Assembly (NCBI GenBank): GCA_031459715.1
Contig: JAVKIA010000004.1
Coordinates: 2,755 to 66,754 of the forward strand
Source of the DNA: Candidatus Humicultor tengchongensis
GTDB taxonomy: Bacteria; Sysuimicrobiota; Sysuimicrobiia; Sysuimicrobiales; Humicultoraceae
Length of the DNA stretch: 64,000 nt
Reading direction: 5' to 3'
Part shown: positions 1 through 30,979 of the stretch, one piece after another
Numbering within the stretch: the stretch's first letter is position 1
Layout: the number at the start of each line of letters is the position of its first letter
The notes under the pieces: generated by a model
Seen by the model: only the letters and a program-made list of their open reading frames with translations
Told to the model about the DNA's origin: nothing
Databases searched by the model: none
Position numbers and translations under genes: made by a program

Positions 1-800
1 CCGGCCTCCTCCCAAGTCAGGGCCAGGAGCGAGCGCACATCGTCGAGGCGGTCTTCCGCCGTGGGGAAGAACGTCGGCCCTGGCAGGCCCGCTGCGCCCG
101 CGGAGTGTCGCGCGATCAGGGTGAGGGTGCGCTGCGGGCCACCGGCGAGCTCCAGGTGCAGCGTCCCCGTCCAGCGGGTGGCGTCGCTGTTTGGCCGCTC
201 GCCAGAGGTGCCCAGCACCTCTGCGCCGAGCGCGATCCGGCCCCCGGGCCAGACGCGTCCCAGGCGAAGACGCGCTCCGGCGCTCCCGAAGCTGCCGCCT
301 CCCACGGAGTAGCCGGACCGCGCGGACGATCGCGTCCGCACCGAGATCACCCCGCCCAGCGCGTTCCCATAGATCGCGGAGTAGGACCCGCGCAGCACCT
401 CTATCCGTTCCACCTCCGCGAGGGAGATGGTGCTCAGGTTGACCCCGAACTGGGCGGTGGCGTTCAGGGGCACGCCGTCGACCAGCACCAGCACCTGCTG
501 TGGGGTGGAGCCGCGGATGGAGGCCTGGGTGAACCCACCGGGGCCACCGCCGGCGGCGCGGGTGGAGACCTCCGCCAGGAAGCGCAGGGCGTCGCCCAAC
601 GTGGCGAACCCCAGCCGGCGCAACTCCTCCCCGTCCAGGACGCTGACGAGGGCGGGCGTCGTGGTCGAGAGCTGGGGACGAAGGCCGGGGACGGTCACCT
701 CCTCCCCCTCGAACGTGGGGACCTGGCCCCGGGCCGGGGCCACCAGGAAAAGCAAAATACCCACGACGGCAATCCCCGTGGGCACAGTACATAGAGCCAT
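1..800 (-). CDS. TonB-dependent outer-membrane receptor, BtuB-like, N-terminal part (runs off the left edge; 3' end outside window)
   Basis: Not in the ORF track because there is no stop in the window. My own translation of the minus strand from the ATG at 800-798 gives a signal peptide (MALCTVPTGIAVVGILLFLVAPARGQV), a TonB-box-like EEVTVPG, and a classic plug domain (…DGVPLN…IERIEVLRGSYSAIYGNALGGVISV…). A Shine-Dalgarno GGAAAGGGGAG lies upstream. It is preceded by a cobalamin riboswitch. Confidence 0.8.
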   Translation of the reverse strand, partial: MALCTVPTGIAVVGILLFLVAPARGQVPTFEGEEVTVPGLRPQLSTTTPALVSVLDGEELRRLGFATLGDALRFLAEVSTRAAGGGPGGFTQASIRGSTPQQVLVLVDGVPLNATAQFGVNLSTISLAEVERIEVLRGSYSAIYGNALGGVISVRTRSSARSGYSVGGGSFGSAGARLRLGRVWPGGRIALGAEVLGTSGERPNSDATRWTGTLHLELAGGPQRTLTLIARHSAGAAGLPGPTFFPTAEDRLDDVRSLLALTWEEA

Positions 801-820
801 CGGACCCACTCCCCTTTCCG

Positions 821-1000
821 CGAAGGTGTGAGGGCCACGGCGGCAGGCAGGTCTTCTGGCTCCGGTTCATCGCGCGGCCGGCCTTCCCGGGCGGCAGGGT
901 GATCGCCCTCGCCCAGTGGCCCCCTGGCCACACTCCCCGTTACAGCGGCGGGACCGCGCCGGATTCCCTGCGACCTCCGCAAGGCCTGCAGGTCACCGGC
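821..1000 (-). ncRNA. Cobalamin (B12) riboswitch in the 5' leader of the TonB-dependent receptor
   Basis: The minus-strand sequence contains GGGAAUCCGGCGCGGUCCCGCCGCUGUAACGGGG, then GGCCACUGGG, CCCGGGAAGGCCGG and GAAGACCUGCC. These match, in the same order, the conserved blocks of the E. coli btuB leader as I recall them (AGGGAAUCCAGUGCG…GCGGUAAGG, GCCAUUC…GGGAAGUC, GAAGACCUGCCGGCC). The element ends about 20 nt before the SD/ATG of the receptor gene. Boundaries are approximate. Confidence 0.75.
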
Positions 1001-1158
1001 TTCCCTCTTCCGACGGAGCGGCGCTCCGTCAACCTGCGCCGTTCACTGGGGTATTCCCGGCCGGGTGGCCGATTCCTCCCGGGGAGTTATCTCAGCGTGG
1101 ATGTGGCGCATCACCGTGCCCGTTGACGACTTGCCCGTAGGGAACCGCCTCGCCTGGG

Positions 1159-2088
1159 TCAGATGCGCGGGCGGAAAGAGACGCGCAGGGGGCCGACGGT
1201 GTATACGTCCTGCGTCACCACCACGTCCACACGAACTGGGCGGCGGGCCTGGGTGATGGCGCTCACCACGCGGCGCAGGGCGTCCAGCTCCGTCTCCACC
1301 AGCGGGGGGTCGGTGATGCGGGCGAACGGCGGCGAGAGGACCTCGCGGCGGGCGGCGGGGGCAGACTGGTCGAGCAGTTCCAGCAACTGTCGCCCCACCT
1401 CGTCACGGGAGCGCCGACCGTCGACCTGACCCGACCCCAGCACCCGGCCCCGCGGGAAGACCAGCCGGTTGTCCACCAGTTGAACCGAGACCTCCAGGGG
1501 CTCGCCCACCAGGGTGTTCTCGTTGGCCACGATGCGCACCACGGTCTCCCCTGGGTGCTGCTTGACCAGCTCCGCCACCTGGTCCCAGGTCAGGGCGGGA
1601 GGAAAGAGGCGCAGCACCGACCCCGTCGTCCCGTCGACGCCGATGCCGCTGGCCAGCGCCTGGTCCACCGCGCGCAGGCGCAGCGTGTCCACCTCTACCG
1701 CCACCTGTACCAGGGGGAGGCGGGCGTCGATGATCCCCCGCAGCACCTCCTGGTTGCGCAGGTAAGCTATGTCTCCCTGCTTCAACTGCTTCAGCCGACT
1801 CTCCGCCCCCCGGATTTCCCCCTGCAGGCTGTCGAGCTGGGCCTGGAGGCTGCGGAACTGGAAGAGCGCCTGGCGGGCGTCCTGCGAGACCAGCAGCACC
1901 GCGGCCACGGTGAGGACGGTGATGAGCATGCCGGTGGCCACAGTGATGATCTGGGCGGTGTGGCGGGGGCGCAATCCGAGGAGGGTGAGCCGGCGCCGCC
2001 CGATGGCCCGGCCGACCAGGTTTCCCACGAAGGCGATCCCCCCGCTAACCAGGATGAGCAGGGGAACCAGGATGATGCCGAACTCCAT
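1159..2088 (-). CDS. DUF3084-like membrane protein (N-terminal TM helices plus coiled-coil); last gene of the long minus-strand operon
   Basis: 309-aa ORF with N-terminal hydrophobic segments (MEFGIILVPLLILVSGGIAFVGNL…, ITVATGMLITVLTVAAVLLV) followed by a coiled-coil stretch (LQAQLDSLQGEIRGAESRLKQLKQ). Its start overlaps the stop of the upstream GT2 gene at 2088. Confidence 0.5.
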   Translation of the reverse strand: MEFGIILVPLLILVSGGIAFVGNLVGRAIGRRRLTLLGLRPRHTAQIITVATGMLITVLTVAAVLLVSQDARQALFQFRSLQAQLDSLQGEIRGAESRLKQLKQGDIAYLRNQEVLRGIIDARLPLVQVAVEVDTLRLRAVDQALASGIGVDGTTGSVLRLFPPALTWDQVAELVKQHPGETVVRIVANENTLVGEPLEVSVQLVDNRLVFPRGRVLGSGQVDGRRSRDEVGRQLLELLDQSAPAARREVLSPPFARITDPPLVETELDALRRVVSAITQARRPVRVDVVVTQDVYTVGPLRVSFRPRI

Positions 2089-2777
2089 CAGCGGGAGACC
2101 AGCAGGCGGCCGAGCAGCCGCAGGTAGGCGATGACCTCTCGCGGTGAGAGTTTGCTGCGCCCGGTGGCGCGGTCGGTGAAGGTGTAGCCCACCTCCACCA
2201 CGGTCAGCCCGGGGTTGCGCGCCAGGATCTCCAGCAGGATCTTGAACCCCAGGCCCCAGTAGTCGCCGGCGAGCACCTCACGGCGTGCGGCGAAGTAGCC
2301 CGAGAGCGGGTCGCGCACAGCCAGGCGCAGGAGGAGGCGTGCTCCGGCCGTCGCCACCATGCTGGCCAGGCGCCGCCAGGCGGGCCACCGCTGGATCCTC
2401 CCGCCCGGCACGTAGCGCGAGGCCACCGCCAGATCCGCGCCTCTCTGCACCGCCGCCACCAGGGCCGGCAGGACCTCCGGAGGGTGGGAGCCGTCGCAGT
2501 CCATCACCGCGACCACCGGCGCGGAGGCGACCGCCGCTCCCGCCAGCACCGCCGAGGCCAGCCCCGCCTTCCCCGGCCGGCGGATCACACGTATGGGCAC
2601 GGGACCATCCGCGGCCAGGGCCGCGGCCACCTCCGCCGTCCCGTCGGGGGAGGCGTCGTCCACGACGATCACCTCCAGGTCCATCACCGGGACCAGCGGA
2701 CGCAGGGCGGCCACCAGCCGGGGCAGGGCCTCTCGCTCGTTGTAGGTGGGCAGGATCAGGGCGGTCCGGGCCGTCAT
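2088..2777 (-). CDS. GT2 polyprenol-phosphate glycosyltransferase (Dpm1/Ppm1/ArnC-like)
   Basis: The true start is the ATG at 2777 (MTARTALILPTYNEREALPRLV…); the 292-aa track ORF carries an N-terminal extension. It has a DxD-type motif (VIVVDDASPDGT), a CDGSHPP motif and …SRYVPGG…, typical of dolichol-phosphate mannose synthase and ArnC. ATGA overlap with the upstream GT39 stop (2774-2777). Confidence 0.8.
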   Translation of the reverse strand: MTARTALILPTYNEREALPRLVAALRPLVPVMDLEVIVVDDASPDGTAEVAAALAADGPVPIRVIRRPGKAGLASAVLAGAAVASAPVVAVMDCDGSHPPEVLPALVAAVQRGADLAVASRYVPGGRIQRWPAWRRLASMVATAGARLLLRLAVRDPLSGYFAARREVLAGDYWGLGFKILLEILARNPGLTVVEVGYTFTDRATGRSKLSPREVIAYLRLLGRLLVSR

Positions 2778-4420
2778 GGCGAGGCGCACGGAAGGGGCTG
2801 CGCCGTCCGCAGCACAAGCAGCTCGCCCCTCGATGCCATCGGTACCAGCTCCCCGGCAAAGGCCCGCCGCGCCCAGCGGTCGTAGTCGCCGCGCTCGAGT
2901 ACCAGGAAGGCGCGTCCCGGGCCGCACAGTGCCCGCCGGGCTTCCGCCTCGCGAGGCGCGACCCACCGGACCGGGTGCCCGCTGTAGAAGACCAGGGAGG
3001 CCCGATCGCTCAGGCCGGCAGCGACGATGCGGTCACCCGGCTGGATCCGGGCCCCCAGTACCAGGGCCAGCGGCTTCATCGGCTTGAGGGTCTCCGCCGC
3101 AGGGAGGACGACGAAGACCAGGACCCCCAGGGTGACCGCCATGGTGGTAACCAGGGCGGCCAGAGCAGGCGCGTGCCTCCGCCAGGCCATCAACCCCGCT
3201 GCCACCGCCACGCCCCCGACCACCGGGAGGGCCAGCAGGCGGAGCTGCAGCCGCAAGGAGGCGTAATGCGCCGGTGATTGCCGCGCGCCCAGCACTGCCA
3301 CAGCCACGACCAGAAACCCGGCAACGGACAGCAGCACCGCGCCGCTCCAGCGCAGGAGGCCATCGGCCCGGGGGTCGCCCTCCCACAGCGCAGCAGCACA
3401 CAGGCGGGCGACGGCGACGGCGGCCACCGGCAGGAGAGGGAGGATGTAGTTAGGCAGCTTCGTACCCGCGGCGGAGTAGAACAGGAGCACAGTCCCCATC
3501 CACAGCAGCAGGAGGAGGCTGCTGTCCTTCTGGCGGGCCCTCCGCCAGTGGTAGACGCAGGCTGAGGGCAGCAGCGCGCTCCAGGGAAAGGCGCCGGCGG
3601 CCAGCACGGGCAGGTAGTAGTACCAAGGCCCGGGCTGGTTCTCCACGACGCCGAAGAAGCGGGTGAACAGGTAATAGCCCACCGCCGTGCGCAGGAACGC
3701 CCGGCCGTGGAGGGCGGTCTCGATGCCGTACCAGGAGAGGCCGATCAGGCCGTAGAGGAGCAGGCCCTCCCAGGGAAGCTCCCGCAGGCGCTCCCGAAGC
3801 CTTCCCCGCACCAGCCACCAGATCCCCAGCGCCATCCCCGGCAGCAGCAGGGCGATCGGACCTTTGGTCAGCGTCCCCAGGCCAGCCCAGACGAACAACC
3901 AGCGGTAGGCGCTCCTCCGATCCGGCCCGCTCCTGGCCTGCTCCGCCGCCACCGCCATCGAGAGTGCCAGAAGCATGAAGACCACAAGCGGGACGTCGAA
4001 GACGGCCATGCGGGACAGCAGGAAGTACTCCAGCATGGTCATCAGGATCAGCCCGGCCAGCAGCCCCGTGCGCAGGTCATAAAACCGGCGGGCAAGCAGC
4101 ACGGTAACGAGCACGCCGGAGGCCCCAAAGAGCGCCGACCAGATCCGCGCGGTGAACTCCGTGAAACCAAACAGAGCACCGGTGGCGGCAACCAGCCACA
4201 TATACAGAGGCGGGTGGACGAACCAGGGTGCGCCGTTGCTGTACAGGGTGAAGGGATCTCCCCGCTGGACGATGGCGCGGGCCACCTCGGTGTATTTCGC
4301 CTCGTCCTGGTCCCACAGGCTCCCCTGCCCCAGGGCAACAGTGAAGAAGGCCAGGGCGGCCGCCGCCAGCAGCAGGGGAGCAGCCCGCTCCGGCAGCCGG
4401 ACGGTCAGCGCACCCGCCAC
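2774..4420 (-). CDS. ArnT/PMT-family (GT39/GT83) polytopic membrane glycosyltransferase using a polyprenol-phosphate-sugar donor
   Basis: The C-terminal ~550 aa of the 780-aa track ORF show multiple TM helices and PMT_2/ArnT-like motifs (…DEAKYTEVARAIVQRGD…, YYYLPVLAAGAFPWS, KLPNYILPL). The N-terminal Pro/Arg/Gly-rich 230 aa is an artefactual extension. My proposed start is the GTG at 4420 (VAGALTVRLPERAAPLLLAAA…), 16 nt inside the LptFG 3' end; the start is uncertain. Confidence 0.7.
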   Translation of the reverse strand: MAGALTVRLPERAAPLLLAAAALAFFTVALGQGSLWDQDEAKYTEVARAIVQRGDPFTLYSNGAPWFVHPPLYMWLVAATGALFGFTEFTARIWSALFGASGVLVTVLLARRFYDLRTGLLAGLILMTMLEYFLLSRMAVFDVPLVVFMLLALSMAVAAEQARSGPDRRSAYRWLFVWAGLGTLTKGPIALLLPGMALGIWWLVRGRLRERLRELPWEGLLLYGLIGLSWYGIETALHGRAFLRTAVGYYLFTRFFGVVENQPGPWYYYLPVLAAGAFPWSALLPSACVYHWRRARQKDSSLLLLLWMGTVLLFYSAAGTKLPNYILPLLPVAAVAVARLCAAALWEGDPRADGLLRWSGAVLLSVAGFLVVAVAVLGARQSPAHYASLRLQLRLLALPVVGGVAVAAGLMAWRRHAPALAALVTTMAVTLGVLVFVVLPAAETLKPMKPLALVLGARIQPGDRIVAAGLSDRASLVFYSGHPVRWVAPREAEARRALCGPGRAFLVLERGDYDRWARRAFAGELVPMASRGELLVLRTAQPLPCASP

Positions 4421-5475
4421 AGGAGGGCACCCCCCAGCGAGGCCAGCAATAGGTTGGGCGTCCACGCGGCCAGCAGGGGCGGCAGGCGACCGGTCTGGCC
4501 CAGGGCAAGTGTGGCGTTGGTCAGCAGGTAGTAAATCAGGATGATCAGCACGGTCAGGCCCAGGCCGATGGAGGGCCCGCCGCGGTGCGGACGCAGCCCC
4601 AGGGGGATGGCCAGGAGGGCAAAGGGCAGGCTGCTGCTGGGCAGCGCCATCCGGGCGTGCATCCACACCAGGTACTCGACGACGACCTCCCCCGTACGCC
4701 GCAGGACGGCGATATAGGCGCGCAGCTCCCGGATGGTCATCTGCGAGGGGTCTTTGTGCTGGGCCAGGATCTCCCGCGGCGTGCGCCGGATCTGGGCCTC
4801 CAGGCGGTGGAAGCTCATCTCCACCGGTGGGCTCGCCGAAAGCAGGTGGACGGTCCCCTCCTCGAACTCCCACCGGCCGCCGCTGTAGCGGGCCCGCCTG
4901 GCCTCGATGACCCGGACCAGGCGCTCCGCCTCGAACTGGTTGACCACCAGCCCTTCCAGGACCTCGCCGCCCCCGGCCATGCGGCGGGCGTAGTAGACGG
5001 AGACGCGGGAGCCTTCCACCTCGCGGAAGAGGACGTAGCCGCGTGGAGACGGGGGCTGCCTGGTGGCGCGGCTTATCTCCTGGGCGAAGCGATCCTCCGC
5101 CAGGGGTACCGTCCACTCGCCAAGCACCGCTCCCCCTACCGCCACCAGCGCCGCCACCACCAGGACCGGCAGGCTCATCCTTCCCAGGCTGATCCCTCCT
5201 GTGCGCATGGCCACCACCTCGTTGTGCTCTGAGAGGCGGCCCGCGGTCATCAGCACCGCCAGCAGCAGGGCCATGGGCAGGGAGGCCACGGCCAGGTTGG
5301 GCAGCCGCAGCAGGAGCAGCCGCAGGACGGTGGGGAGGGCGATGTGCTGGCTGACGGCGATCCGCACCAGCCCGAAGATGTCGTTCACCGCCAGCAGGAC
5401 GGTGAACAGGCCCACCCCAAAGAGGAAGAGGCCCAGCACCTGCTTCAGGATGTACCGATCCAGGATGGAGATCAC
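4405..5475 (-). CDS. lptF: LPS export ABC permease, LptF/LptG (YjgP/YjgQ) family
   Basis: 356 aa beginning MISILDRYILKQVLGLFLFGVGLFTVL…, with a periplasmic beta-jellyroll insert followed by C-terminal TM helices, typical of LptF/G. 4-nt overlap with upstream lptB. Confidence 0.8.
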   Translation of the reverse strand: MISILDRYILKQVLGLFLFGVGLFTVLLAVNDIFGLVRIAVSQHIALPTVLRLLLLRLPNLAVASLPMALLLAVLMTAGRLSEHNEVVAMRTGGISLGRMSLPVLVVAALVAVGGAVLGEWTVPLAEDRFAQEISRATRQPPSPRGYVLFREVEGSRVSVYYARRMAGGGEVLEGLVVNQFEAERLVRVIEARRARYSGGRWEFEEGTVHLLSASPPVEMSFHRLEAQIRRTPREILAQHKDPSQMTIRELRAYIAVLRRTGEVVVEYLVWMHARMALPSSSLPFALLAIPLGLRPHRGGPSIGLGLTVLIILIYYLLTNATLALGQTGRLPPLLAAWTPNLLLASLGGALLWRVR

Positions 5476-6188
5476 AGCTGGAAGGTCTCTCCCAGGTAGA
5501 AGCGCCGTGCCTCCTCGCTCTCCATGATCTCCCGCGCTGTACCCGCCAGGAGGACGGAGCCCTGGTGGATGATCATGGAGCGGTCGGTGATGGCCAGGGT
5601 CTCCCGCACGTTGTGGTCGGTGACCACCACACCCAGGCCGCGGGCCCGCAGACCGCGCACCACCTCCTGGAGCTCCGACACGGACTTGGGGTCGATTCCG
5701 GTAAACGGCTCGTCCAGCAGGATGTAGGACGGCTCCATGGCCATGACCCGGGCGATCTCCACGCGCCGCCGCTCCCCTCCGGAAAGGGAGACTCCCACCT
5801 GGCGGCGCAGGTGGGTGAGGCCGAACTCCACCAGCAGCCGCTCCACCGTCTCCCGCCGCGCGGCGCGCGGCCGCCCGGCGGCCTCCAGGACGATGAGGAT
5901 GTTCTCCTCCACGGTGAGCCCGCGGAAGATCGAGGGCTCCTGGGCCAGGTAGCCGATGCCCAGGCGCGCCCGCCTGTGCACGGGCAGGTGAGTCAGCTCC
6001 AGACCGTCCAGCCAGACCTCCCCGGCATTGGGCCGTACCAGGCCTACCATCATGTAAAAGGTCGTGGTCTTCCCGGCGCCGTTGGGCCCCAGCAGGCCGA
6101 TGATCTCACCCCGCTCCACCTCCAGCGTCACGCCGTTGACCACGGTGCGCGCCCCGTACCGTTTGACCAGGTTGCGTGTCCGCAGCAC
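5472..6188 (-). CDS. lptB: LPS export ABC transporter ATP-binding protein LptB
   Basis: 238 aa with Walker A GPNGAGKTT, signature LSGGERRRVEIARV, Walker B ILLDEPF and an LptB-like C-terminus. Confidence 0.85.
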   Translation of the reverse strand: MLRTRNLVKRYGARTVVNGVTLEVERGEIIGLLGPNGAGKTTTFYMMVGLVRPNAGEVWLDGLELTHLPVHRRARLGIGYLAQEPSIFRGLTVEENILIVLEAAGRPRAARRETVERLLVEFGLTHLRRQVGVSLSGGERRRVEIARVMAMEPSYILLDEPFTGIDPKSVSELQEVVRGLRARGLGVVVTDHNVRETLAITDRSMIIHQGSVLLAGTAREIMESEEARRFYLGETFQL

Positions 6189-6207
6189 GGCCGACCACTC
6201 CCCGGGG

Positions 6208-7149
6208 TTACTGCCCCGGCCCGCCCAGAGTCAGACGGGGACCGCCGGTTGCGGTCACCCGCCGCGCCCGCAGCTCCACTCTCACCACCTCGGCGGTCAG
6301 GGTATGGGAGCCGCGGCGCACCACCACCCCGCCGCTCAGGGTGACCACTCCGGCACGCCCGTCCGCTACCGCCAGCGGCGCGCGCGCCAGCAGCTCCCCG
6401 GCGGTGAGGCGGACGTCGTCCACAGCCGTCGCCCGCTCCTCCGCAAGGCGGGCCTCTACCCTACCCGCCTGCAGGCGCCCCTCCGGAAGGGTGAGGTCCG
6501 CGTCCCCGGCGGCGGTCCCCACCTCCGCCGCCGCGTCAAACTCCAGCCGCCGCCCTGCCAGCCGCATTTGCCCGAAGGTGAGGAGGGGACTGCCCTCGGC
6601 CATCACCCGCCTCCTGGCCAGGTCCACCTCGATCCGCCCCGCCGTCAGACGCACCAGGTCGGCGCCGCGCTGCGCGGTCACCTCCACGCCCTCCTCAGCC
6701 ACGACAAGGTTGCTCCGCAGCCAGGCTGCGGTACGGGACGCCCGCAGGACCAGCGTCTCCTGCCGCAGGACCACGCCGCCGGACGCTTCCACCAAACCCC
6801 GCCGCTCATCGTAGCGAACCTCCGGGGCCTCCAGCCTGGCCGGGCCCCAGGCCACTACCACCGGGAAGCCTCGCAGGAGCCAGGTGCCGGCAGCACGGTC
6901 GTACTCGGCGTACGAGGCGCCGGTGACCTCTACGGGCGGTCCTCCCTGGGCCGCGGCGGGCTGGCCTGCGGCAAACGGCGCCCTCGCCGCAGCAGAGGGG
7001 CTGGCGGCACAGGTCAGGGTGGCCGCGAGCACCAGGGTGGCGGCCAGGGCCAGGGTGCCAGTGAGGGTCAGGGCCGCACCCGGGAGTGGAGCAGCGGCCA
7101 CAGCGGTGCGCGACGAGACTGCGGGGGCGGGGAAAGGGCGACCGCGCAC
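6208..7149 (-). CDS. LptA/OstA-like periplasmic LPS-transport protein (start uncertain)
   Basis: The C-terminal ~250 aa of the 435-aa track ORF has a signal-like segment (AVAAAPLPGAALTLTGTLALAATLVLAATLTCAAS) followed by an OstA-fold-like beta-rich region (…LRGFPVVVAWGPARLEAPEVRYDERRGLVEASGGVVL…, …VRLTAGELLARAP…). A candidate GTG start at 7149 abuts the LptC-like stop. Confidence 0.55.
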   Translation of the reverse strand: MRGRPFPAPAVSSRTAVAAAPLPGAALTLTGTLALAATLVLAATLTCAASPSAAARAPFAAGQPAAAQGGPPVEVTGASYAEYDRAAGTWLLRGFPVVVAWGPARLEAPEVRYDERRGLVEASGGVVLRQETLVLRASRTAAWLRSNLVVAEEGVEVTAQRGADLVRLTAGRIEVDLARRRVMAEGSPLLTFGQMRLAGRRLEFDAAAEVGTAAGDADLTLPEGRLQAGRVEARLAEERATAVDDVRLTAGELLARAPLAVADGRAGVVTLSGGVVVRRGSHTLTAEVVRVELRARRVTATGGPRLTLGGPGQ

Positions 7150-7151
7150 AG

Positions 7152-7766
7152 CTACTCCCGCACAGTCACGCGGATGTTCCCGCTCAGCCTGGCCCTGCGT
7201 AGCTCGATGTCGCTCTCCAGGCGGTCGGCGCGGACGGTAATCCGGTCCTGCACCAGCACCACGCCGCCGGTCGCCACTAGGAGGCGGCGAGCGGGCAACC
7301 ACTGCACGCGCCCCGCCGCCAGAGACCGTCCCTGGGCACGGGCGCGTACCTCGCCCCACAGCGTCAGTACCTGCGCCCCAATAGAGAAGACGGCGCTGGC
7401 CGCGGCAACCGTCAGCACCGCCCTGCCCCGCTCGTAAAATGTTCCGTCCACGCCCTCCAGCCGCACCTCCTGTCGGGCGGCATCCGTCTCCAGAGTCCTG
7501 GCCCGCAGCTCCCACCGGATAGTGCCCGCCGCATCACCTCCGGTGAGGCGGCCGCCCACAACGGAGACCTCCGGCGGGGCAGTTTCAGAGGTGGGCGCGG
7601 GCGCACCGCGTACCGAGCCAGGCGCAGGCGTGGAAACAGGCGCAGGTGGGGAGGCGCCGGACGACGGGCCGGGATCGCCGGCGGACCCTCCGCGGCCCAG
7701 CCAGGTCAGGCCGGCCAGCCCCAGCACGGCGACCACCGCTGCGGCCGTCCACCACCTCACGCGCAT
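7152..7766 (-). CDS. LptC-like membrane-anchored OstA-fold protein
   Basis: The ATG at 7766 gives MRVRWWTAAAVVAVLGLAGLTWLG (a TM anchor), a Pro/Ser-rich linker, then a beta-rich domain ending …DRITVRADRLESDIELRRARLSGNIRVTVRE, which is LptC/LptA-like. It sits between lpxB and lptA/lptB. Confidence 0.55.
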   Translation of the reverse strand: MRVRWWTAAAVVAVLGLAGLTWLGRGGSAGDPGPSSGASPPAPVSTPAPGSVRGAPAPTSETAPPEVSVVGGRLTGGDAAGTIRWELRARTLETDAARQEVRLEGVDGTFYERGRAVLTVAAASAVFSIGAQVLTLWGEVRARAQGRSLAAGRVQWLPARRLLVATGGVVLVQDRITVRADRLESDIELRRARLSGNIRVTVRE

Positions 7767-7824
7767 CTGTGCCGGGGCTCCGTCTCCCCGCCTGAGCCGG
7801 CTCGTCGCCCTCTCCCCGCAGTCG

Positions 7825-9012
7825 TCAGATCGTCTGTATGGTACTCGAGCCCTCTCTGCCCAGCAAGCGCGCCAGGCGGAGGACCTCTGCTGCGGCGCGC
7901 TCCGCAGCGCCACCGTCCGCCAGCCCCAGGCGAAGCGCCCGCAGCTCCTCCTGCTGGCGGGTGCGCCGCGGCGTATCCGCCAGCCAGTCCGCTAGCGTCG
8001 CGGCCAGACGTCGGGGCGTCAGAGCGTCCTGCAGCAGCTCCGGCATCACCTCCCGTCCGGCCAGGAGGGAAGGCAGGCCGGCCCACTGCACAGCTGCGAT
8101 CCGCCTGGCTATCCAGTAGTCCAGGCGGGAGGTCTTGTAGATGACGACGCCGGGGATGCCCAGGCAGAGCGCTTCCAGCGTGGCGGTCCCTGAGGCGATC
8201 ACAGCGAAGTCGGAGGAGGCCAGGGCGTCGTATCCCGCCTGCGTCCCGCCCTCCACGACGGTGACTTGAAGACCCGCAGGCCGCAGCGCGGCTTCTACCT
8301 GCGTCCTGTAGTGGGGCGCGGCCAGCAGGAGGACAGCACGCAGCGCAGGGAGGCGCGCCCGAACGGAGGCCAGGGCGCCGGCGATGACGGGGAGGTGGCG
8401 GCGCAGCTCCTGGCGGCGGCTTCCTGGCAGAAGCGCCAGCAGCGGCGCCTGCAGGGGAATCCCCAGGCGACTGCGGACTACCTCGGGCGGTGCAGACGGC
8501 CGGACGCGGTCAACGGCGGGATGGCCGACGTAGCGGACGTCGGCGCCCGCCGCGCGGTACGCCTGGGCCTCGAAGGGAAAGGCCGCCAGCAGGCGCAGGC
8601 CCAGCTTGGCCACCCCACAGGCCCGCCGCCCTCGCCGTGTGGAGACCATGGGTGGCAGGAAGTAGGCGACGGGCACCCTGCCCTGAAGGCGACGGGCCAG
8701 GGCCAGGTTGAAACCGGGGAAGTCGATCAGGACCACCGCCCGGGGAGCGGCGGCGGCGATCGCCCGATGCACCCGGGAGAGCCGGGCCAGAAAGGCCGGC
8801 AGGCGAGGGAGCACCTCCAGCCACCCCACCACGCCCCACCCGGAGCTGTCCAGCAGCAGGCGCGCGCCCGCCGCAGCCATCCTCGGCCCTCCCACCGCTG
8901 GCAGATCCACATCGGGACGGAAGCGGCGCAGAGCGGCGACCAGGTCAGCCCCGTAGATGTCTCCCGAGACCTCTCCCGCCACCAGGAAGATACGGGGCCC
9001 CACTGCGGCCAT
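7825..9012 (-). CDS. lpxB: Lipid-A-disaccharide synthase LpxB
   Basis: From the ATG at 9012: MAAVGPRIFLVAGEVSGDIYGADLVAAL…, with GT19 motifs (…FLPPMVSTRRGRRA…, …GTATLEALCLGIPGVV…). Confidence 0.85.
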   Translation of the reverse strand: MAAVGPRIFLVAGEVSGDIYGADLVAALRRFRPDVDLPAVGGPRMAAAGARLLLDSSGWGVVGWLEVLPRLPAFLARLSRVHRAIAAAAPRAVVLIDFPGFNLALARRLQGRVPVAYFLPPMVSTRRGRRACGVAKLGLRLLAAFPFEAQAYRAAGADVRYVGHPAVDRVRPSAPPEVVRSRLGIPLQAPLLALLPGSRRQELRRHLPVIAGALASVRARLPALRAVLLLAAPHYRTQVEAALRPAGLQVTVVEGGTQAGYDALASSDFAVIASGTATLEALCLGIPGVVIYKTSRLDYWIARRIAAVQWAGLPSLLAGREVMPELLQDALTPRRLAATLADWLADTPRRTRQQEELRALRLGLADGGAAERAAAEVLRLARLLGREGSSTIQTI

Positions 9013-9076
9013 GGACTGCCCTGGGACAGTGTGACCGCTCACCTCTGCCTGGGGCCCAGGGGGAACGAGGGCCCGC

Positions 9077-9913
9077 TCACTCGGCGCCCGACGCCCAGCG
9101 AACCACGCCGCGCGGCCGCTCGCGGGCGGCGCGGAGGAAGGCCACCAGCTCCCCCACCAGCGGGTGATCGCCCAGCTCGGCCTGCAACCGCTCCAGCGCC
9201 TGACCCAATCCCAGCGCGGACTGGTACAGGATGCGAAATGCCCGGCGCAGCACGGCGCGGTCGCCCGCACTGATTCCCTGCCGCTGCAGGCCGACGCGGT
9301 TCAGACTGCGGCAGCGCGCGGGACGCCCTTCCGCCAGCATGAACGGCGGGCAGTCCTGGCGCAGCAGGCTGAATCCGCCGATCATGGCCAGGCGGCCGAT
9401 GTGCACGAACTGGTGGATCCCGGTCATCCCGCCGATGTACGCGCCGTCGTCCACCTGCACGTGCCCGGCCATCTGCACGCCGTTGACCACCACAACCCGA
9501 TCCCCCAGACGGCAGTTGTGCCCGATGTGGGCGGAGCACATGATGAGGCACTCGTTGCCCACCACGGTGGCCGCACCCTCCCCGGTGGCCCGGCTGATGT
9601 TCACGTACTCCCGGATGCGGTTGCGGTCGCCGATCACCAGGTAGCTGCGCTCGCCCTGGAAGTGCCGGTCCTGCGGAATGGTGCCCAGGGTGGCACCGCT
9701 GGAGATCTCGTTGTCCATCCCGATGCGCACCCCGTCCTCGATGACCACGTGGGGGCCGATGCGGGTCCCCGGGCCGACGACCACGTCGCTGCCGACCACG
9801 GCGTAGGGCCCTACCACCACGCCGGGGTGCAGGCGGGCGCCGGGATGGACCACGGCGGTCGGGTGCACCTCCACCGAGTCCCGAGCATGATCCCTTCCCC
9901 GGGGGGTGCTCAT
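9077..9913 (-). CDS. lpxA: UDP-N-acetylglucosamine O-acyltransferase LpxA
   Basis: 278 aa with left-handed beta-helix hexapeptide repeats ([26 protein letters not shown]…) and an LpxA-like C-terminal helical domain. Confidence 0.85.
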   Translation of the reverse strand: MSTPRGRDHARDSVEVHPTAVVHPGARLHPGVVVGPYAVVGSDVVVGPGTRIGPHVVIEDGVRIGMDNEISSGATLGTIPQDRHFQGERSYLVIGDRNRIREYVNISRATGEGAATVVGNECLIMCSAHIGHNCRLGDRVVVVNGVQMAGHVQVDDGAYIGGMTGIHQFVHIGRLAMIGGFSLLRQDCPPFMLAEGRPARCRSLNRVGLQRQGISAGDRAVLRRAFRILYQSALGLGQALERLQAELGDHPLVGELVAFLRAARERPRGVVRWASGAE

Positions 9914-9929
9914 AGTGAGTGCAACCCCA

Positions 9930-10829
9930 TCACCGCGCCTCCCCCGGCCGTGGCCCCAGCGGCGAGGCCTCTACGGCGAACACGCTGATCCCCGCCTCCT
10001 CCGCACGGGCGGCCAGCCGCAGCCGCTCCAGGACGATGGTGCGGAAGGCCTCCACCGCCAGCACCCGTGCCCGTCCCGCCCGCATCACCTCCACGGTTTC
10101 CGGACCCACGGTGGGAAGATCGAAGCGGGGGTCTTGCTGCGGCCGGCTCACCTTCACCACTACTGCGCCCGGTGCCATGGCCGTGCCCCGCCGGATGGCG
10201 GCATCGGTCCCCTCCGCCGCCTCCACGGCCAGGATCGCCCCGTGCTTGAGAACCACGGTCTGGCCCACTTCGTGGGCCGCCAGTGCACGGCCCACGGCCA
10301 GGCCGATGCGCACGTCGCGCTCTTCCGCAGGGCTAAGTGGGGTGCCGGCCAGCAGCCCGGGCGGGGCCACAAGGTCGGGGACGTAGGCGAGCTGGTCCAG
10401 GACGCGGATCCCCTGCGCGGCCAGGCGGCGGGCCAGGGCGTCCAGGATCTGCTGGTCACCCCGTTCCGGCAGTCGCTCCAGGAACCCGCGCAGGTCGGAC
10501 CCGGAGGCGAGCAGCCGCGCCACCATCTCTCCGCGGCGAAACCGCCCGGCCAGCAGTACCTCGCGCACTGCATGCCGGTGCCACAGGGCCTCCAGCTCCT
10601 CCCACTGCTCCGGGGCCAGCCTGGCGAAGACGTGGGCCAGGTGCTCCAGAGCCGGAGTCTCCCCCGCCATCTGCACGCAGACGAGGCGGCGGCCCCGCGC
10701 CCGCACCGCCCTGGCCAGCACCTCTGGCAGGCGCCCCTCGCCCGCCAGCAGTCCCACGGCACCGCGCAGTGCCTCCCCACCGCCTGGGGCGGCCCTGGGG
10801 AATCGTCTCTGGGGCCGGGCCGCGGTCAC
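9930..10829 (-). CDS. lpxI: UDP-2,3-diacylglucosamine hydrolase LpxI (DUF1009)
   Basis: DUF1009/LpxI-like core ([27 protein letters not shown]…[25 protein letters not shown]). The start GTG at 10829 overlaps the fabZ stop in a GTGA overlap that I checked in the DNA. The 397-aa track ORF is an N-terminally over-extended artefact. Confidence 0.7.
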
Positions 10830-11332
10830 CTCTCGCCGACCAGCGGCTCCGCGGAGGGTGCGGGCGCCACCTGTTCCTCCGGCAGGAGGGCAGTCGCCGT
10901 CTCTTCCCGGGGAAGGGCAAACGCGATCTCCGCTTCTGCCGCCACCTCCTCCCCCACCCGGGCCACTCCCCAGACCTTTCCCAGCCGCCCGCGCAGGGCC
11001 CGCACCTCCACCTCGATGCGCAGGGTGTCGCCGGGTACCACCGGGCGGCGGAAACGACAGCGGTCGATCCCGGCCAGGTAGGCCAGGTGCCCGCGCAGGC
11101 GGGGGACGTTGAGGATCAGGCACGCCGCCACCTGGGCCATCGCCTCCACCACCAGCACCCCCGGCATAACCGGATAGCCCGGGATGTGACCGGCGAAGAA
11201 GGGTTCGTTGACGGTCACGTTCTTGATGCCGACGATGCGCCGCTCCTCCATCTCCACGATCCGGTCCACGAGGAGAAAGGGGTAGCGGTGGGGCAGGATG
11301 GCAAGGATCTGCTCAAGGCTCAGTGCGGGCAT
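10826..11332 (-). CDS. fabZ: 3-hydroxyacyl-ACP dehydratase FabZ
   Basis: From the ATG at 11332: [60 protein letters not shown]…, the canonical FabZ hot-dog fold. 20-nt overlap with the lpxC 3' end. Confidence 0.9.
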
Positions 11333-12149
11333 TTCTCTCCCCCCAGCGGCGCGCAATCTCCCGGGCCAGGGCCACGTGCAAGGCGTGGCCTCCGCGGACG
11401 ACCTCCACGTATCCATGCAGGCGAGCACCCAGCAGGGCCAGGTCCCCCAGCAGGTCGAGGATCTTGTGCCGGACCGGCTCGTCGGCGAACCGGGGCGGGT
11501 TCAGGTAGCCGCCCGCGGCAATGACCAGGACGTTCCCCGGCCCGGCCCCCCGAGCCAGTCCCGCGGCGCGCAGCGTCGCGGCTTCGTCAACAAATCCCCA
11601 GGTCCGCGCCGGAGCAATCGCGGTGGCGAACACCGAGAGGTCGGCGGTGGCCACCTGACGGCCCAGGGGCGGCGGCAGGTCCACGATGTAGCGGACGCGG
11701 AGCTCGCCGCCCGCCCGGGTGACGGCGCGGGCATCCCCGACCGTCACCTCCACCTCGCCGAGTTCGATCACCCGGGCAGGCTCTTCCTGCTCCACGATGC
11801 CGGCCCCGGCCAGCGCCTCCACGTACCCGGCCGCGCTGCCGTCGAGGGCAGGCAGCTCCGGCCCTTCCACCTCCACCTGCAGGTTGTCGATGCAAAGACC
11901 CGCCGCCGCCGCCAGCAGGTGCTCCACGGAGGCCACGGTCACGCCGTCTCCCAGGGTGACCCCGCGGCGCGTGCTGCGCACGTTCTCCAGTGTCGCCCGA
12001 AGGGCGCCAGGGCCGAGGTCGCAGCGGGAGAAGATGACACCCGCACCGGGAGGCGCGCCCAGAAGGCGCACGCGTACCGCCGCGCCGCTGTGTACCCCCA
12101 CGCCACTTAGGGAGACGGCTCTAGTGATGGTGCGCTGGCGGATGGGCAT
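11313..12149 (-). CDS. lpxC: UDP-3-O-acyl-N-acetylglucosamine deacetylase LpxC
   Basis: From the ATG at 12149: [29 protein letters not shown]…, with LpxC motifs (…[18 protein letters not shown]…, …[14 protein letters not shown]…). Confidence 0.85.
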
Positions 12150-12165: not shown

Positions 12166-13968
12166 CTACTCCTTCGGTCGCAGCAGGAGGCGCACAGGGT
12201 AATAGGAGCCGGCCGCGGGCATGGTAACGACGCCGACCTGCACGCTCTGCCCAGCCGGCACGGTGAGGGTACCAAGGACGCGCTCCTCGCCCGGCCGGTA
12301 GATGGCGATCTCCACCGGGCGGCCATCCACCAGGAAGGTTCCGCGCGCCGGACCGCCGGCGGCGACGGCCACCAGCTCCGCCTGCACCTCGGTCGGCCCG
12401 CCGGCCACTGTGAGCAGCAGGCGGTAGACGACGCCGTAGTCTCCCACCAGCGGCTCGGCCGTGCGCACGTCCTGCAGTCCGGCCGCCGCCCCCAGGTCCA
12501 CCAGGGGCACCGGCCCGCCCAGCTCCACCCGTCGATGGACGGTCACCGTGGGCAAGGGGAAGACGCCCCGGGGATGGGGGTAGGCCACCTGGTACACGGG
12601 CAGGGGGACCGTGCCCTCCAGCAGCCAGGGGAGGCGGACTTGCACCCGGACCTCGAGCTCCTCTCCCCGCAGCAACTGGAGCTGCAGGATACCCGAGACC
12701 AGCTGCCGGGGAGCCATCGTCTGGACGGTGAAGGCATAGGCGGAGTTTGGCGGAACCTCCAGCACGTAGCCCCGGCCGGCAGCCAGGTTCCGCAGGAAGC
12801 GCGCCGCGGCGGCATGCCCCACAAACAGAGAATCGGGGGAGGGACCGGCCAGGCCACTGATCAGCAGCATCTCTGAGGGCTGCGTGCTGCGGTTCCACAG
12901 CATAACGGAGAGGATGCGAGGGCACGCCGGGGTCCCGTTCATGTGGTGGTAGAGCAGGCGGATCGGGTGGCGCGCGTCTACCGCTTCGGAGAAGAGGATC
13001 CCGTCGGCGTCCACGACCTCGGGTCGGTTGCTCACTAACAGCAGTGCCGGATCCGCCACCTGCACCCGTTCCCGCAGCACAACCACGCGCGCCACCCCGT
13101 CCACCGGCAGCGCATATGGGCTGCGTACCACCACCGGGACGGCCAGCTCCACCCGGTCGGCGTCCGCGGCCATCCCCTCCAGGGACGGGAAGGGACCCAC
13201 GGCCAGCGTGGCCCCGGGCCCCCGGCGCACCACCTGGTCGATGCGCCGCCGTACCGCCTCCCTGATCAGTGCCGCATCCGTCAGGTCGCCGCTGACCCGT
13301 ACCGTAACCTCCTCGGGGATGGTTCCGGCAAGCGGTCGCACCACCACCGGCAGCAAGACCCGCCCTCCTCCCACGGCCACCGGCACCACCGTGGAGCCCA
13401 CCGCACGGGCCTCCACCACCACAGTGCCTCCTTCCACCCGCACAGAAGCGATGCGCCGGTCGAAAGGCCCAAGCCTCACCGCTCCCGGGAGGAAGGCCTG
13501 GACGGAGACGCTTGCCCTCTCTCCGGGCGAAAGCCGCAGCAGCGGCGGAAACAGACGGACGGTGTTGCGGGCCAGGGCCTGCTGCAGCCGCGCCGCCCAC
13601 TGCGCGGCCAGCGCCTCCGGGGTGGTCCGGTTGAGCCGCGCCAGCTCTCCGTCGGCAGTGACCAGGTGCCGCTCGTTCACCAGCAGGTCCGCGGCTCCGG
13701 GACGGGGGCGCACGGCGACGGTGTATGGGCCCCCCGCCGCTACCAGCGCGCCGAGTCGGCGCACCACTTCCGCCGCCCGCAGCGCCGCCCCCGGCCCGCG
13801 CACCCGTAGCACCACCACCTCCTGCAGGACGACCGCCACCGCAGGCTCCGCACCGGTCTGCGGGAGCAGACGCACCGGAGCCTCCGCCCTCCCCCCGGCG
13901 GCGAGGAGGGTGAGGCTCACCGTGCAGGCCAGGAGGGTCGTCAGAGGCAGCCGCAGGGACAGCATCAC
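12166..13968 (-). CDS. Hypothetical secreted protein (600 aa) inserted between lpxD and lpxC
   Basis: N-terminal signal peptide ([30 protein letters not shown]), then a long beta-rich, Val/Arg/Pro-rich sequence with no motif I recognise. Its coordinate spans overlap lpxD by 4 nt upstream and leave 16 nt before lpxC downstream, so it appears to sit in the lpx operon. Confidence 0.6.
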
Positions 13969-28648: not shown

Positions 28649-29845
28649 TTATGCCCGGCGACGGGCGGCGCGGCTACGCTGGCTCGGCCGGGGTGCGGGT
28701 TGGCCAAACTCCTCCGGCGGGGAGGGCCGGCGGCCGAAGTAGAAACGCAGGGCCTCCACGATCCGTTCGGCAGCCCGCCCGTCGCCGTAGGGGTTCTGCC
28801 TGCGGGCCATCGCCTCGTACGCCGCCGGGTCGGAGAGCAGCCGACCGGCCTCGGCCACGATGCGCGCCCGGTCCGTTCCCACCAGGCGGGCCGTTCCCGC
28901 CTGGATTCCCTCCGGTCGCTCCGTCACCTGTCGCAGGACGAGGACGGGCTTGCCCAGCGCGGGCGCCTCCTCCTGGATGCCTCCGGAGTCGGTGAGGATG
29001 AGGTGGGCGCGGCGCATCAAGGCTACCCAGGGGACGTACTCCGGCGGCTCCAGCAGGTGCGCCCGGGGGTGGCCGCGCAGGACCTGGTGCACCACGCGGC
29101 GCACCGCCGGGTTGGGGTGCACGGAGAAGACCAGCTCCACGTCGGGATATCGCTCCAGCAGGTCCAGCAGGGCCAGGTAGATCTGACGCAGCGGCTCTCC
29201 CCAGTTCTCCCGGCGGTGAGTGGTCACCAGCAGGAGGCGGCGGCCCTCCAGCGGCGGGATCTGCGGGGGCAGCGCCCCGGTCGCACGTGTGGCTACAGCC
29301 TGCAGGGCGTCGATCACCGTGTTGCCGGTGACAAAGATGCGCCCGGGGTCCACCGCTTCGCGCAGCAGGTTCTGCCGCGCCTGCTCGGTGGGGGCAAAGT
29401 GCAGGTCGGCCAGCACCGAAACCAGCCGCCGGTTCATCTCCTCGGGGAAGGGCTGGTACTTGTCGGCGGTGCGCAACCCCGCCTCCACGTGCCCAACCGG
29501 CAGGCGGTGGTAGTAGGCGGCCAGCGCGCCCACGAAGCAGGTGTGGGCGTCCCCCTGCACCAGGACCATGGCCGGCCGCAGCCTTTCCAGCAGGGATGAC
29601 AGCCCCTGCAGCGACCGGGTGACGATGTCGCTGAGGCCCTGTTCGGGGAGCATGATGTCCAGGTCGTGGTCGGGGACGATGTCGAAGACGGAGAGCACCT
29701 GGTCCAACATCTCCCGGTGCTGCCCGGTGACCACCACCAGGGGCTGGAAGTCGCCGCACTGACGCAGCGCCTCTACCAGCGGGGCCATCTTCACGGCTTC
29801 GGGCCTTGTGCCGAAGATGGTGACGACGCGCAGGGGGTCGGGCAC
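28649..29845 (-). CDS. wecB: UDP-N-acetylglucosamine 2-epimerase (non-hydrolysing), WecB/MnaA
   Basis: 398 aa: MPDPLRVVTIFGTRPEAVKMAPLV…HVEAGLRT…DSGGIQEEAPALGKPVLVLR, which is diagnostic. Confidence 0.9.
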   Translation of the reverse strand: MPDPLRVVTIFGTRPEAVKMAPLVEALRQCGDFQPLVVVTGQHREMLDQVLSVFDIVPDHDLDIMLPEQGLSDIVTRSLQGLSSLLERLRPAMVLVQGDAHTCFVGALAAYYHRLPVGHVEAGLRTADKYQPFPEEMNRRLVSVLADLHFAPTEQARQNLLREAVDPGRIFVTGNTVIDALQAVATRATGALPPQIPPLEGRRLLLVTTHRRENWGEPLRQIYLALLDLLERYPDVELVFSVHPNPAVRRVVHQVLRGHPRAHLLEPPEYVPWVALMRRAHLILTDSGGIQEEAPALGKPVLVLRQVTERPEGIQAGTARLVGTDRARIVAEAGRLLSDPAAYEAMARRQNPYGDGRAAERIVEALRFYFGRRPSPPEEFGQPAPRPSQRSRAARRRA

Positions 29846-29848
29846 GCG

Positions 29849-30979
29849 CTACGCCGGGCGGCCTCCGCCGCGGGTGTCCCGCACCGCCGCCGCCTTCCGC
29901 TCCAGCAGCCCCATGCGCCGCGCCCCGACGTACAGGGCGGCGGCGATCACCGCCAGGGTGACCACCGAGGCCGTGCGGTTGACGCCGGCCACCGCCAGCG
30001 CACCCACGCCGAAGAAGGCGCTGACCAGGTAGAGGAGGAGGACCGTCTGCCGCTGGGAGAGCCCCCGGTCCAGCAGCCGATGGTGCAGGTGCCCGCGGTC
30101 CGGCAGGTAGATGGGCTGGCGGCTGCGGAAGCGGCGGACGATGGCGAAGGCGGTATCCACGATGGGCACGGCCAGCGCCAGCAGGGGGACCGCCAGAGAG
30201 AGGGCGGTGTAGGACTTGTACAGGCCCATCACCGAGATGCCGCCCAGGACGTAGCCCACGAACATGGAGCCGGAGTCGCCCATGATGATGCGCGCCGGGT
30301 TGAAGTTGTGCCGCAGGAAACCCAGCATGCTGCCGATGAGGCACGCCGCCAGGAGCATGGAGGTGGCGTCCCCCTTGACCATGGCCGTGAGCAGGAGCGT
30401 GGTCCCGGCGATGGCGGCGATGCCCGAGGCCAGGCCGTCCACCCCGTCGATGAAGTTGGTGGCGTTGACCACTCCCACCACCCAGACGATGGTGAACAGC
30501 GGCCCCAGCGGACCTACCGCCACCGTCCGCCCCGTCAGGGGGTGGGTGACGAACTGCGTGCTAAGTCCGAAGGGGATGAGCACGGCCCCCGCGGCCACCT
30601 GCAGCAGGAATTTGAGAGCCGGATGCAGCCCCCTGGCGTCGTCCCAGATCCCCACCAGGAAAAGGAAGGTCGATCCCAGGAGGATCCCCAAGACCGCCTG
30701 GTCGGCGCGCGGGCTGAGGGGGATGCGGATGGTGAGGACGTCGCCGCGGTGGGTGAAGACGATGTCCCGCGTGATGACCGTAGCCACCAGGAGGGCGGCG
30801 AGGAAGCCGACGTAGATGGCCACCCCGCCCAGCCGCGGCATGGGGCGCACGTTGATCCGCCGCCCGCCGGGGTAGTCTATGGCACCGATGCGCCGGGCAA
30901 AGCGCCGCAGCCCCGGAGTCAGGGCGTTGGTCACCACCAGGGCGACCAGGGCGGCGGCAATCCAGGAGGGGAGGATCAT
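29849..30979 (-). CDS. Undecaprenyl-phosphate N-acetylhexosamine-1-phosphate transferase (WecA/TagO, GT4 MraY-like)
   Basis: 376 aa polytopic membrane protein with NATNFIDGVDGLASG and the HHRLL motif (DRGHLHHRLLDRG). Confidence 0.85.
   Translation of the reverse strand: MILPSWIAAALVALVVTNALTPGLRRFARRIGAIDYPGGRRINVRPMPRLGGVAIYVGFLAALLVATVITRDIVFTHRGDVLTIRIPLSPRADQAVLGILLGSTFLFLVGIWDDARGLHPALKFLLQVAAGAVLIPFGLSTQFVTHPLTGRTVAVGPLGPLFTIVWVVGVVNATNFIDGVDGLASGIAAIAGTTLLLTAMVKGDATSMLLAACLIGSMLGFLRHNFNPARIIMGDSGSMFVGYVLGGISVMGLYKSYTALSLAVPLLALAVPIVDTAFAIVRRFRSRQPIYLPDRGHLHHRLLDRGLSQRQTVLLLYLVSAFFGVGALAVAGVNRTASVVTLAVIAAALYVGARRMGLLERKAAAVRDTRGGGRPA

Follow-up and report, generated by a model that had tools for sequence, protein, structure and literature searches.

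A predicted polyprenyl-phosphate mannose synthase and an ArnT-family transferase at the 3' end of the lpt operon of Candidatus Humicultor tengchongensis: a candidate lipopolysaccharide mannosylation module

Three-component periplasmic glycosylation systems, such as GtrA/B/C and CsbB/GtcA/YfhO, pair a family 2 glycosyltransferase (GT2) that synthesizes a polyprenyl-phosphate sugar with a GT-C-fold transferase that acts outside the cytoplasmic membrane. The ArnC/ArnT system (Protein Data Bank (PDB) entries 5ezm, 5f15 and 9bhc) employs such a synthase and transferase for 4-amino-4-deoxy-L-arabinose (Ara4N). In Francisella novicida, the Dpm1/PmrF-like protein FlmF1 and the ArnT homologue FlmK are both required for phosphate-free mannose on lipid A; FlmF1 is proposed to make undecaprenyl-phosphate-mannose, and FlmK transfers the mannose, without its phosphate, to the lipid A backbone at the periplasmic face (PMC2233673). 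Mannose-bearing lipid A of Bdellovibrio and of purple sulfur bacteria is cited in the same work (PMC2233673). In Burkholderia cenocepacia, deletion of arnT is viable only with a suppressor mutation in lptG that permits the export of unmodified lipopolysaccharide (LPS) (PMC5377068). Here we describe a GT2 gene and an ArnT-like GT-C gene that follow the LPS-export genes lptB and lptFG in Candidatus Humicultor tengchongensis (Sysuimicrobiota), in a stretch of 64,000 nucleotides (the window; assembly GCA_031459715.1, contig JAVKIA010000004.1, positions 2,755 to 66,754 of the forward strand). All positions given for the locus are those of the whole 64-kb window, and all genes around the glycosyltransferase pair lie on its minus strand.

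A first-pass annotation of this DNA had described a polyprenyl-phosphate sugar synthase and an ArnT-family GT-C enzyme whose genes are coupled to the lpt operon at its 3' end, and our analysis bears this description out. We assign the biochemical nature of both enzymes with high confidence: the GT-C protein is an ArnT-family (GT83-type) enzyme, and the GT2 protein is of the Dpm1/Ppm1 type and predicted from its sequence to be a GDP-mannose:polyprenyl-phosphate mannosyltransferase. With moderate confidence, we read the pair as a periplasmic-face LPS mannosylation module built into the LPS-export operon; gene context makes LPS the somewhat favored acceptor, with a lipid A phosphate, a lipid A hydroxyl or a core sugar as the group that may be modified. 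The type of system, a polyprenyl-phosphate-sugar synthase with an ArnT-family transferase, is already known, and the notable part is its hard-wiring into the LPS-export operon. FlmF1/FlmK appears to be the closest precedent, a likeness that we draw from the described roles of these proteins: a synthase with an ArnT-type transferase, mannose as the sugar, and no need for sugar-modifying enzymes. The Francisella system differs in that flmF1 lies far from flmK by locus tags, that no link to lpt is reported, and that FlmK also transfers galactosamine. Compared with FlmF1, the GT2 of the window is a protein of 229 amino acids without transmembrane helices, closest to archaeal and eukaryotic dolichyl-phosphate mannose synthases (DPMS).

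The GT-C protein (2774-4420) matches the Pfam families PMT_2 (70.5 bits) and PMT (54.3 bits), which we did not use to separate ArnT from the protein mannosyltransferases (Pmt). Its best NCBIfam model is ArnT at 159.7 bits, as against 40 bits for the Pmt equivalog model, which has a cut-off of 800 bits. A phmmer search against the PDB gave a sole match, the ArnT of Cupriavidus metallidurans (CmArnT; 5ezm, 1.2e-28), and a family profile of 117 sequences, compared with PDB sequences, recovered the same ArnT (3.6e-59) and, at E <1, not a single Pmt chain. An AlphaFold2 model built on the 117-sequence alignment (predicted local distance difference test score 94.6, predicted template modelling (TM) score 0.93) has 13 transmembrane helices and a C-terminal periplasmic alpha/beta domain. 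In Foldseek comparisons, this model superposes on ArnT 5f15 over its full length with TM scores of 0.81/0.82 (E 1e-22), while the next GT-C folds, ALG12 and STT3, reach about 0.55 and Pmt1, Pmt2 and Pmt4 reach 0.29-0.49. The first-pass annotation had said that clustering with Pmt, together with a nearby mannosylated lipoprotein system, would refute it; by profile and by fold, the protein falls on the side of ArnT (160 versus 40 bits; TM 0.81 versus 0.29-0.49). Given these values and the lack of a Pmt match by the family profile, we rejected a Pmt (GT39) identity for the protein.

The likeness to ArnT extends to functional residues. Residues D39/E40, D142, R254 and Y325 align with D55/E56, D158, R270 and Y345 of CmArnT, Y43 and R254 align with Y43 and R254 of the B. 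cenocepacia enzyme (BcArnT), and the catalytic and donor-phosphate residues D39, Y43, D142, R254 and Y325 are invariant across the 117 homologues; E40 is family-invariant as well. Four residues are required in BcArnT, in which K69A and K69E abolish Ara4N transfer (PMC5377068); Y43 and R254 are two of these four. ArnC/ArnT and the window pair thus share their two-enzyme logic, their GT-C fold and conserved functional residues. They differ in that the window pair has a synthase that is not ArnC, no arnA/B/D/E/F genes, a sugar predicted to be neutral mannose, and a location in the lpt operon instead of a PmrA-regulated arn operon. The GT-C protein is nevertheless not an orthologue of the Ara4N transferase (ArnT proper), because its score lies below the ArnT equivalog cut-off and because no arnA/B/D-type domains occur in the scanned open reading frames (ORFs) of the window. 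This domain scan covered 48 ORFs, chosen by codon-position GC content, with a few ORFs at 17.1-18.4 kb, at 20.3-21.1 kb and beyond 59 kb left out. Among the scanned ORFs there is no ArnA/B/D-type gene and no LgmC-type deacetylase gene, in agreement with the first-pass annotation, which had seen neither nearby.

The GT2 protein (2088-2777) matches Pfam Glycos_transf_2 at 112.5 bits. Its best PDB match is the Pyrococcus furiosus DPMS (PfDPMS; 5mlz, 1.3e-53), with 44% identity to the catalytic domain between residues 4-226 and residues 24-247 of 5mlz. PDB chains of ArnC match at about 1e-11 and over the N-terminal half only, and the NCBIfam ArnC model scores 51.5 bits against a cut-off of 529 bits; further, the 229 residues of GT2 compare with 316 positions in the ArnC model and 322-363 residues in the ArnC chains of the PDB, and the C-terminal transmembrane helices of ArnC are missing. 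On these grounds we rejected an ArnC identity, so that of the earlier label "Dpm1/ArnC-like" the first half stands and the second does not. Sixteen DPMS residues have been named for the binding of guanine, mannose, metal-diphosphate and acceptor phosphate (PMC5526996). GT2 keeps 15 of them (Y10, E12, D39, G68, L69, D89, D91, H94, R117, R131, S135, F177, K178, R202 and K208); it differs from DPMS in the metal ligand Q93, which is Ser, and in A90, which is Cys and turns the DXD motif from DAD into DCD. The protein consists of the catalytic domain and two interface helices without a transmembrane domain, and PfDPMS cut back to just this extent retains both its membrane targeting and its activity (PMC5526996). 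In size, it corresponds to the catalytic-domain-only type represented by human DPM1 and the mycobacterial Ppm1 domain. It departs from Ppm1/DPMS systems in that no DPM3- or Ppm2/Lnt-like membrane-anchor partner was found adjoining it and that its partner GT-C is of the ArnT type rather than Pmt (GT39) or GT87.

Because GT2 is DPMS-type, the carried sugar, which the first-pass annotation had left unnamed, is most likely plain mannose as judged from sequence. NCBI calls a 100%-identical protein "polyprenol monophosphomannose synthase". With plain mannose, the lack of ArnA/B/D or deacetylase genes is to be expected and not puzzling.

The gene order of the unit and of the element that follows it is given below. 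Gene calls were taken from a contig (L081; GCA_031458875.1, contig JAVKJQ010000004.1) that is 99.98% identical to window 1-12088; NCBI files this record under Armatimonadota, and its species-level relatives are named Sysuimicrobiota (CSP1-3).

7825-9012, minus strand: lpxB (Pfam; gene calls in L081)
7152-7766, minus strand: lptC (Pfam; gene calls in L081)
6208-7149, minus strand: LptA-like gene (Pfam; gene calls in L081)
5472-6188, minus strand: LptB-like ABC ATPase gene (Pfam ABC_tran; precedes lptFG in all loci of context A, defined below)
4405-5475, minus strand: lptFG, a single gene for an LPS-export permease of the LptF/LptG family (Pfam LptF_LptG 287.5 bits; NCBIfam LptG 214 bits, LptF 158 bits)
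2774-4420, minus strand: ArnT-like GT-C gene, 548 amino acids (GTG start at 4420, TGA stop at 2774)
2088-2777, minus strand: GT2 gene, 229 amino acids (ATG start at 2777, TGA stop at 2088)
1159-2088, minus strand: DUF3084 membrane protein gene, 309 amino acids, last gene of the unit
829-1051, minus strand: cobalamin riboswitch (Rfam RF00174, 79.6 bits against a gathering score of 31.5; full-length model match)

Four successive junctions overlap: lptB/lptFG at GTGA, lptFG/ArnT-like by 16 nt, ArnT-like/GT2 at ATGA, and GT2/DUF3084 at TGATG. The first-pass annotation had reported that the ArnT-like gene overlaps both GT2, at ATGA, and the lptFG stop, and the coordinates and junctions are as it described them. 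The ArnT-like gene starts at GTG 4420, 16 nt ahead of the end of the lptFG stop (TGA 4407-4405), which therefore lies inside it; this codon is the only in-frame ATG, GTG or TTG start downstream of lptFG that retains transmembrane helix 1 (residues 13-27 of the model), and an independent gene caller picked it on identical contigs. In the NCBI annotation, GT2 begins at a GTG 12 nt upstream (233 amino acids) and likewise overlaps the ArnT-like gene. Since the GT2 stop overlaps the ATG of the DUF3084 gene (TGATG at 2090-2086), the transcription unit extends to 1159. The DUF3084 protein has two transmembrane helices, a long coiled coil and an alpha/beta domain. The riboswitch lies directly upstream of a TonB-dependent receptor ORF (3-866), with TonB next in the source contig, which suggests a B12-regulated BtuB-like importer; because this riboswitch opens the next, separate unit, the lpt/glycosyltransferase unit ends with DUF3084. 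A scan of 700-9400 for promoter and terminator consensus sequences returned no promoters and four weak terminator-like sites against 2.0 expected, a result that is uninformative in DNA of 72% GC (the region around the pair has a G+C content of 69-75%). The operon holds a single LptF/LptG-family gene, here and in every related locus, and the LptG model scores above LptF; the permease is by implication either a homodimer or completed from a second gene copy at another place in the genome.

The main argument for LPS as the acceptor comes from the conservation of this neighborhood. One genome per species was scanned, the contigs of database homologues were looked up, neighbors were re-mapped by tblastn, and contexts were counted for homologues of at least 41% identity having enough flanking DNA. 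All such homologues lie in one of two lipid A/LPS contexts, A (38 loci) or B (13 loci). Context A places the GT-C gene directly after lptB-lptFG, with a spacing that ranges from a 16-nt overlap to a gap of about 220 nt, and continues downstream with DUF3084, a TonB-dependent receptor and TonB. Because the arrangement recurs across about 40 loci whose proteins are only 41-88% identical, it is not a chance juxtaposition. In context B, which comes from metagenome-assembled genomes labelled Bacillota, Firmicutes or just bacterium, the GT-C gene is directly preceded by an LpxB-like gene (lpxB model score 44 bits) and a TIGR03492 gene, a family named "lipid-A-disaccharide synthase-related" (282 bits, cut-off 219 bits). 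The loci L077 and L078, for which there are full gene calls, add divergently transcribed SIS and GHMP-kinase genes, which we infer to be heptose-pathway-like, together with an MsbA-like exporter gene and GT2 genes, two or three in number, that converge on the GT-C gene; a phosphomannomutase-family gene is also nearby in L078 (5811-16221). Context B thus looks like an uncharacterised lipid A/core locus. Because a single orthologous group occupies two independent lipid A/LPS neighborhoods, we favor LPS as the acceptor. The earlier comparison with LPS decoration accordingly gains from the second context, while the amino-sugar systems with which it was drawn, such as ArnC/ArnT, are poorer analogues than FlmF1/FlmK mannosylation.

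Within context A, among loci with enough downstream flank, a Dpm1-type GT2 gene stands between the GT-C gene and DUF3084 in 19 and is missing in 17. One of the latter (L013, 7986-11236) has two tandem ArnT-like paralogues between lptFG and DUF3084; the loop of its second paralogue reads FDKPP, nearer to the YFEKP of ArnT than the FVHPP of the window protein, and its two transferases could serve two acceptor positions. A further locus (L083, 4869-8237) consists of lptFG, a Dpm1-type GT2 gene, a small 23S_rRNA_IVP-family gene and DUF3084, so that the slot is filled without an ArnT-like gene. Since L083 has GT2 without GT-C, each gene can hold this site independently, and since the two are found apart, they are not an obligate adjacent pair.

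Several observations weigh against a module for LPS mannosylation. Gene neighborhood is the sole basis on which the acceptor is assigned, and synthase and transferase are not always together: GT2 is missing in about half of the context-A loci, and one locus has GT2 without GT-C. The GT-C protein itself falls short of the 567-bit ArnT equivalog cut-off with its 159.7 bits. The essential Lys of the ArnT YFEKP loop (CmArnT K85, BcArnT K69) is a nearly invariant His69 here, and the zinc site of CmArnT (E84, H265 and H267) is missing, the aligned residues being V68, Y249 and L251. Homologues at 28-38% identity, from cyanobacteria, Eremiobacterota and others, were in neither context by tblastn, and two cyanobacterial loci (L063 and L064) had no LPS genes by Pfam; being in neither LPS context, these distant homologues are uninformative on the acceptor. 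Finally, the gene cluster to which the pair belongs also encodes a UDP-GlcNAc 2-epimerase, a WecA/TagO-like GT4, BamA and TamB, with an SLH-domain porin downstream, and this mixture of envelope genes makes other acceptors conceivable.

The GT-C enzyme might accordingly mannosylate a non-LPS envelope glycopolymer or glycolipid, such as a secondary cell-wall polymer that anchors the SLH porin or a lipomannan-like lipoglycan, and its adjacency to lptFG would then reflect general envelope clustering. Ppm1-type synthases do supply lipomannan synthesis in Actinobacteria, and the cluster of about 30 kb mixes envelope functions (the epimerase and GT4 at 28649-30979, BamA, TamB and Skp, with the SLH-domain protein downstream) and, in DUF3084 and a RuvX-like orphan, also includes genes without a known role. 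The adjacency is, however, specific, being directly after lptFG in 38 loci and after the LpxB-like and TIGR03492 genes in the other lineage, and by both fold and profile the enzyme is closest to the single GT-C that has lipid A as a known acceptor; we therefore hold a non-LPS polymer to be unlikely. Bacterial protein O-mannosylation by a Ppm1 and Pmt-like pair, acting on secreted, periplasmic or outer-membrane proteins, would likewise account for the synthase, since a Dpm1/Ppm1-type enzyme is the same type as the donor supplier of actinobacterial Pmt; Pfam PMT and PMT_2 both match the GT-C protein, and NCBI labels several homologues "glycosyltransferase family 39." This explanation is improbable in view of the Pmt score, far below its own cut-off and well below that of ArnT, the failure of the family profile to find any Pmt chain, a structural match to ArnT that includes the ArnT-type C-terminal domain and far exceeds that to Pmt1/2/4, and the lack of a conserved candidate glycoprotein gene adjoining the GT-C gene.

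It is also conceivable that the two proteins are not donor and user, that GT2 supplies polyprenyl-phosphate-mannose to other pathways, and that the GT-C enzyme uses another lipid-linked sugar of separate origin, such as an amino sugar or a uronic acid. The 17 context-A loci with GT-C and no adjacent GT2, the second ArnT-like paralogue in L013 and the lone GT2 of L083 speak for such a separation. Against it, ATGA or 4-nt coupling of the two genes is repeated between lineages with no more than 44-60% identity, an unlinked synthase gene is nothing unusual in such systems, as the distant locus tags of flmF1 (FTN_1403) and flmK (FTN_0546) illustrate, and no other polyprenyl-phosphate sugar synthase or sugar-modifying gene is found nearby among the scanned window ORFs. 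We regard this explanation, too, as having little probability.

In the LPS mannosylation that we favor, GT2 would sit on the cytoplasmic face of the membrane by means of its amphipathic interface helices and, as its strong homology suggests, transfer mannose from GDP-mannose to polyprenyl phosphate, giving polyprenyl-phosphate-beta-mannose. This carrier would be flipped to the periplasmic face by a flippase that is not encoded in the operon. No GtrA- or ArnE/F-type flippase gene occurs there, a difference from the three-component Gtr-type systems; from lpxB to the riboswitch every gene has an assignment except DUF3084, which has no flippase-like fold. The GT-C enzyme would then attach the mannose to lipid A or to the inner core in the outer leaflet of the inner membrane, these substrates being suggested by context, after the lipid has been flipped and before its extraction by the co-expressed LptB-LptFG. 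Given the translational coupling of its genes to lptB and lptFG, this modification is likely to be constitutive rather than a regulated resistance response, and the sugar added would be neutral, not cationic. A role in resistance to polymyxin or other cationic antimicrobial peptides is doubtful, and indeed unlikely, because the predicted sugar is neutral.

The pair and DUF3084 stand at the end of an outer-membrane biogenesis cluster of about 30 kb in the window. Its order is tamB, a sigma-factor gene, bamA, three skp/ompH genes, lpxD, a 600-amino-acid secreted orphan, lpxC, fabZ, lpxI, lpxA and lpxB, followed by lptC, lptA, lptB, lptFG, the ArnT-like gene, GT2 and DUF3084. The same kind of cluster is known from diderm Firmicutes, where DUF3084 (COG4372) and a RuvX-like gene are conserved orphans (PMC5007114); both genes are present here. 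The orphan between lpxD and lpxC (12166-13968, minus strand; 600 amino acids) carries a signal-like hydrophobic segment at its N terminus and matches nothing in Pfam or NCBIfam, and unannotated genes of 598-600 amino acids occupy the same position in two other loci, L003 and L004. The order fabZ-lpxI-lpxA-lpxB (9077-10781, minus strand) compares with fabZ-lpxA-lpxI-lpxB or lpxC-lpxA-lpxI-lpxB in L003, L004 and L006, and therefore represents a local swap. The UDP-GlcNAc 2-epimerase and WecA/TagO-like GT4 genes (28649-30979, minus strand) adjoin the TamB/BamA part of the cluster, and downstream of TonB the source contig carries the SLH-domain porin-like gene (L081 14960-16393); all three fit a Terrabacteria-type, SLH-tethered outer membrane. 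A tRNA-Gln gene (anticodon TTG; 34160-34234, minus strand) stands just upstream of glmU-prs. The scanned ORFs of the window include no lpxK, waaA, kds or msbA, and the window holds no paralogues of the ArnT-like or GT2 gene.

Both genes are already sensibly auto-annotated in public records, and a search of an accessible library of papers found none naming ArnT together with diderm or Terrabacteria; two papers on the CSP1-3 phylum leave its envelope aside. The locus predicts a constitutive hexose (+162 Da, mannose) on the lipid A or inner core of a little-known, uncultured, hot-spring-associated lineage, and the predicted maker of this modification is a hybrid that joins an actinobacterial/archaeal-type mannose carrier synthase to a proteobacterial-type lipid A transferase. 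For the conserved outer-membrane gene cluster by which diderm evolution in Terrabacteria is traced, the locus supplies, in addition, two annotated members and a firm 3' boundary. The B. cenocepacia case indicates that export by LptFG can require prior modification of the ArnT type; there, Ara4N is the sugar and the genes concerned do not share an operon, and here both functions are translationally coupled. By analogy, we can only speculate that LptFG export depends on the ArnT-like enzyme in this lineage. A broader proposal, which we put forward as a long shot, is that ArnT-type mannosylation, far from being an optional decoration, would in this lineage and in its relatives be a step of LPS biogenesis that is constitutive and coupled to export, that mannose installed on a phosphate-poor or Kdo-poor lipid A would form part of what the single-gene LptFG permease recognizes, much as LPS export in B. 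cenocepacia requires Ara4N, and that the lptFG-arnT-like-DUF3084 arrangement would be an ancestral Terrabacteria solution for passing modified lipid A to the Lpt bridge. We see in the locus a natural setting in which to ask whether lipid A modification is coupled to extraction by LptFG.

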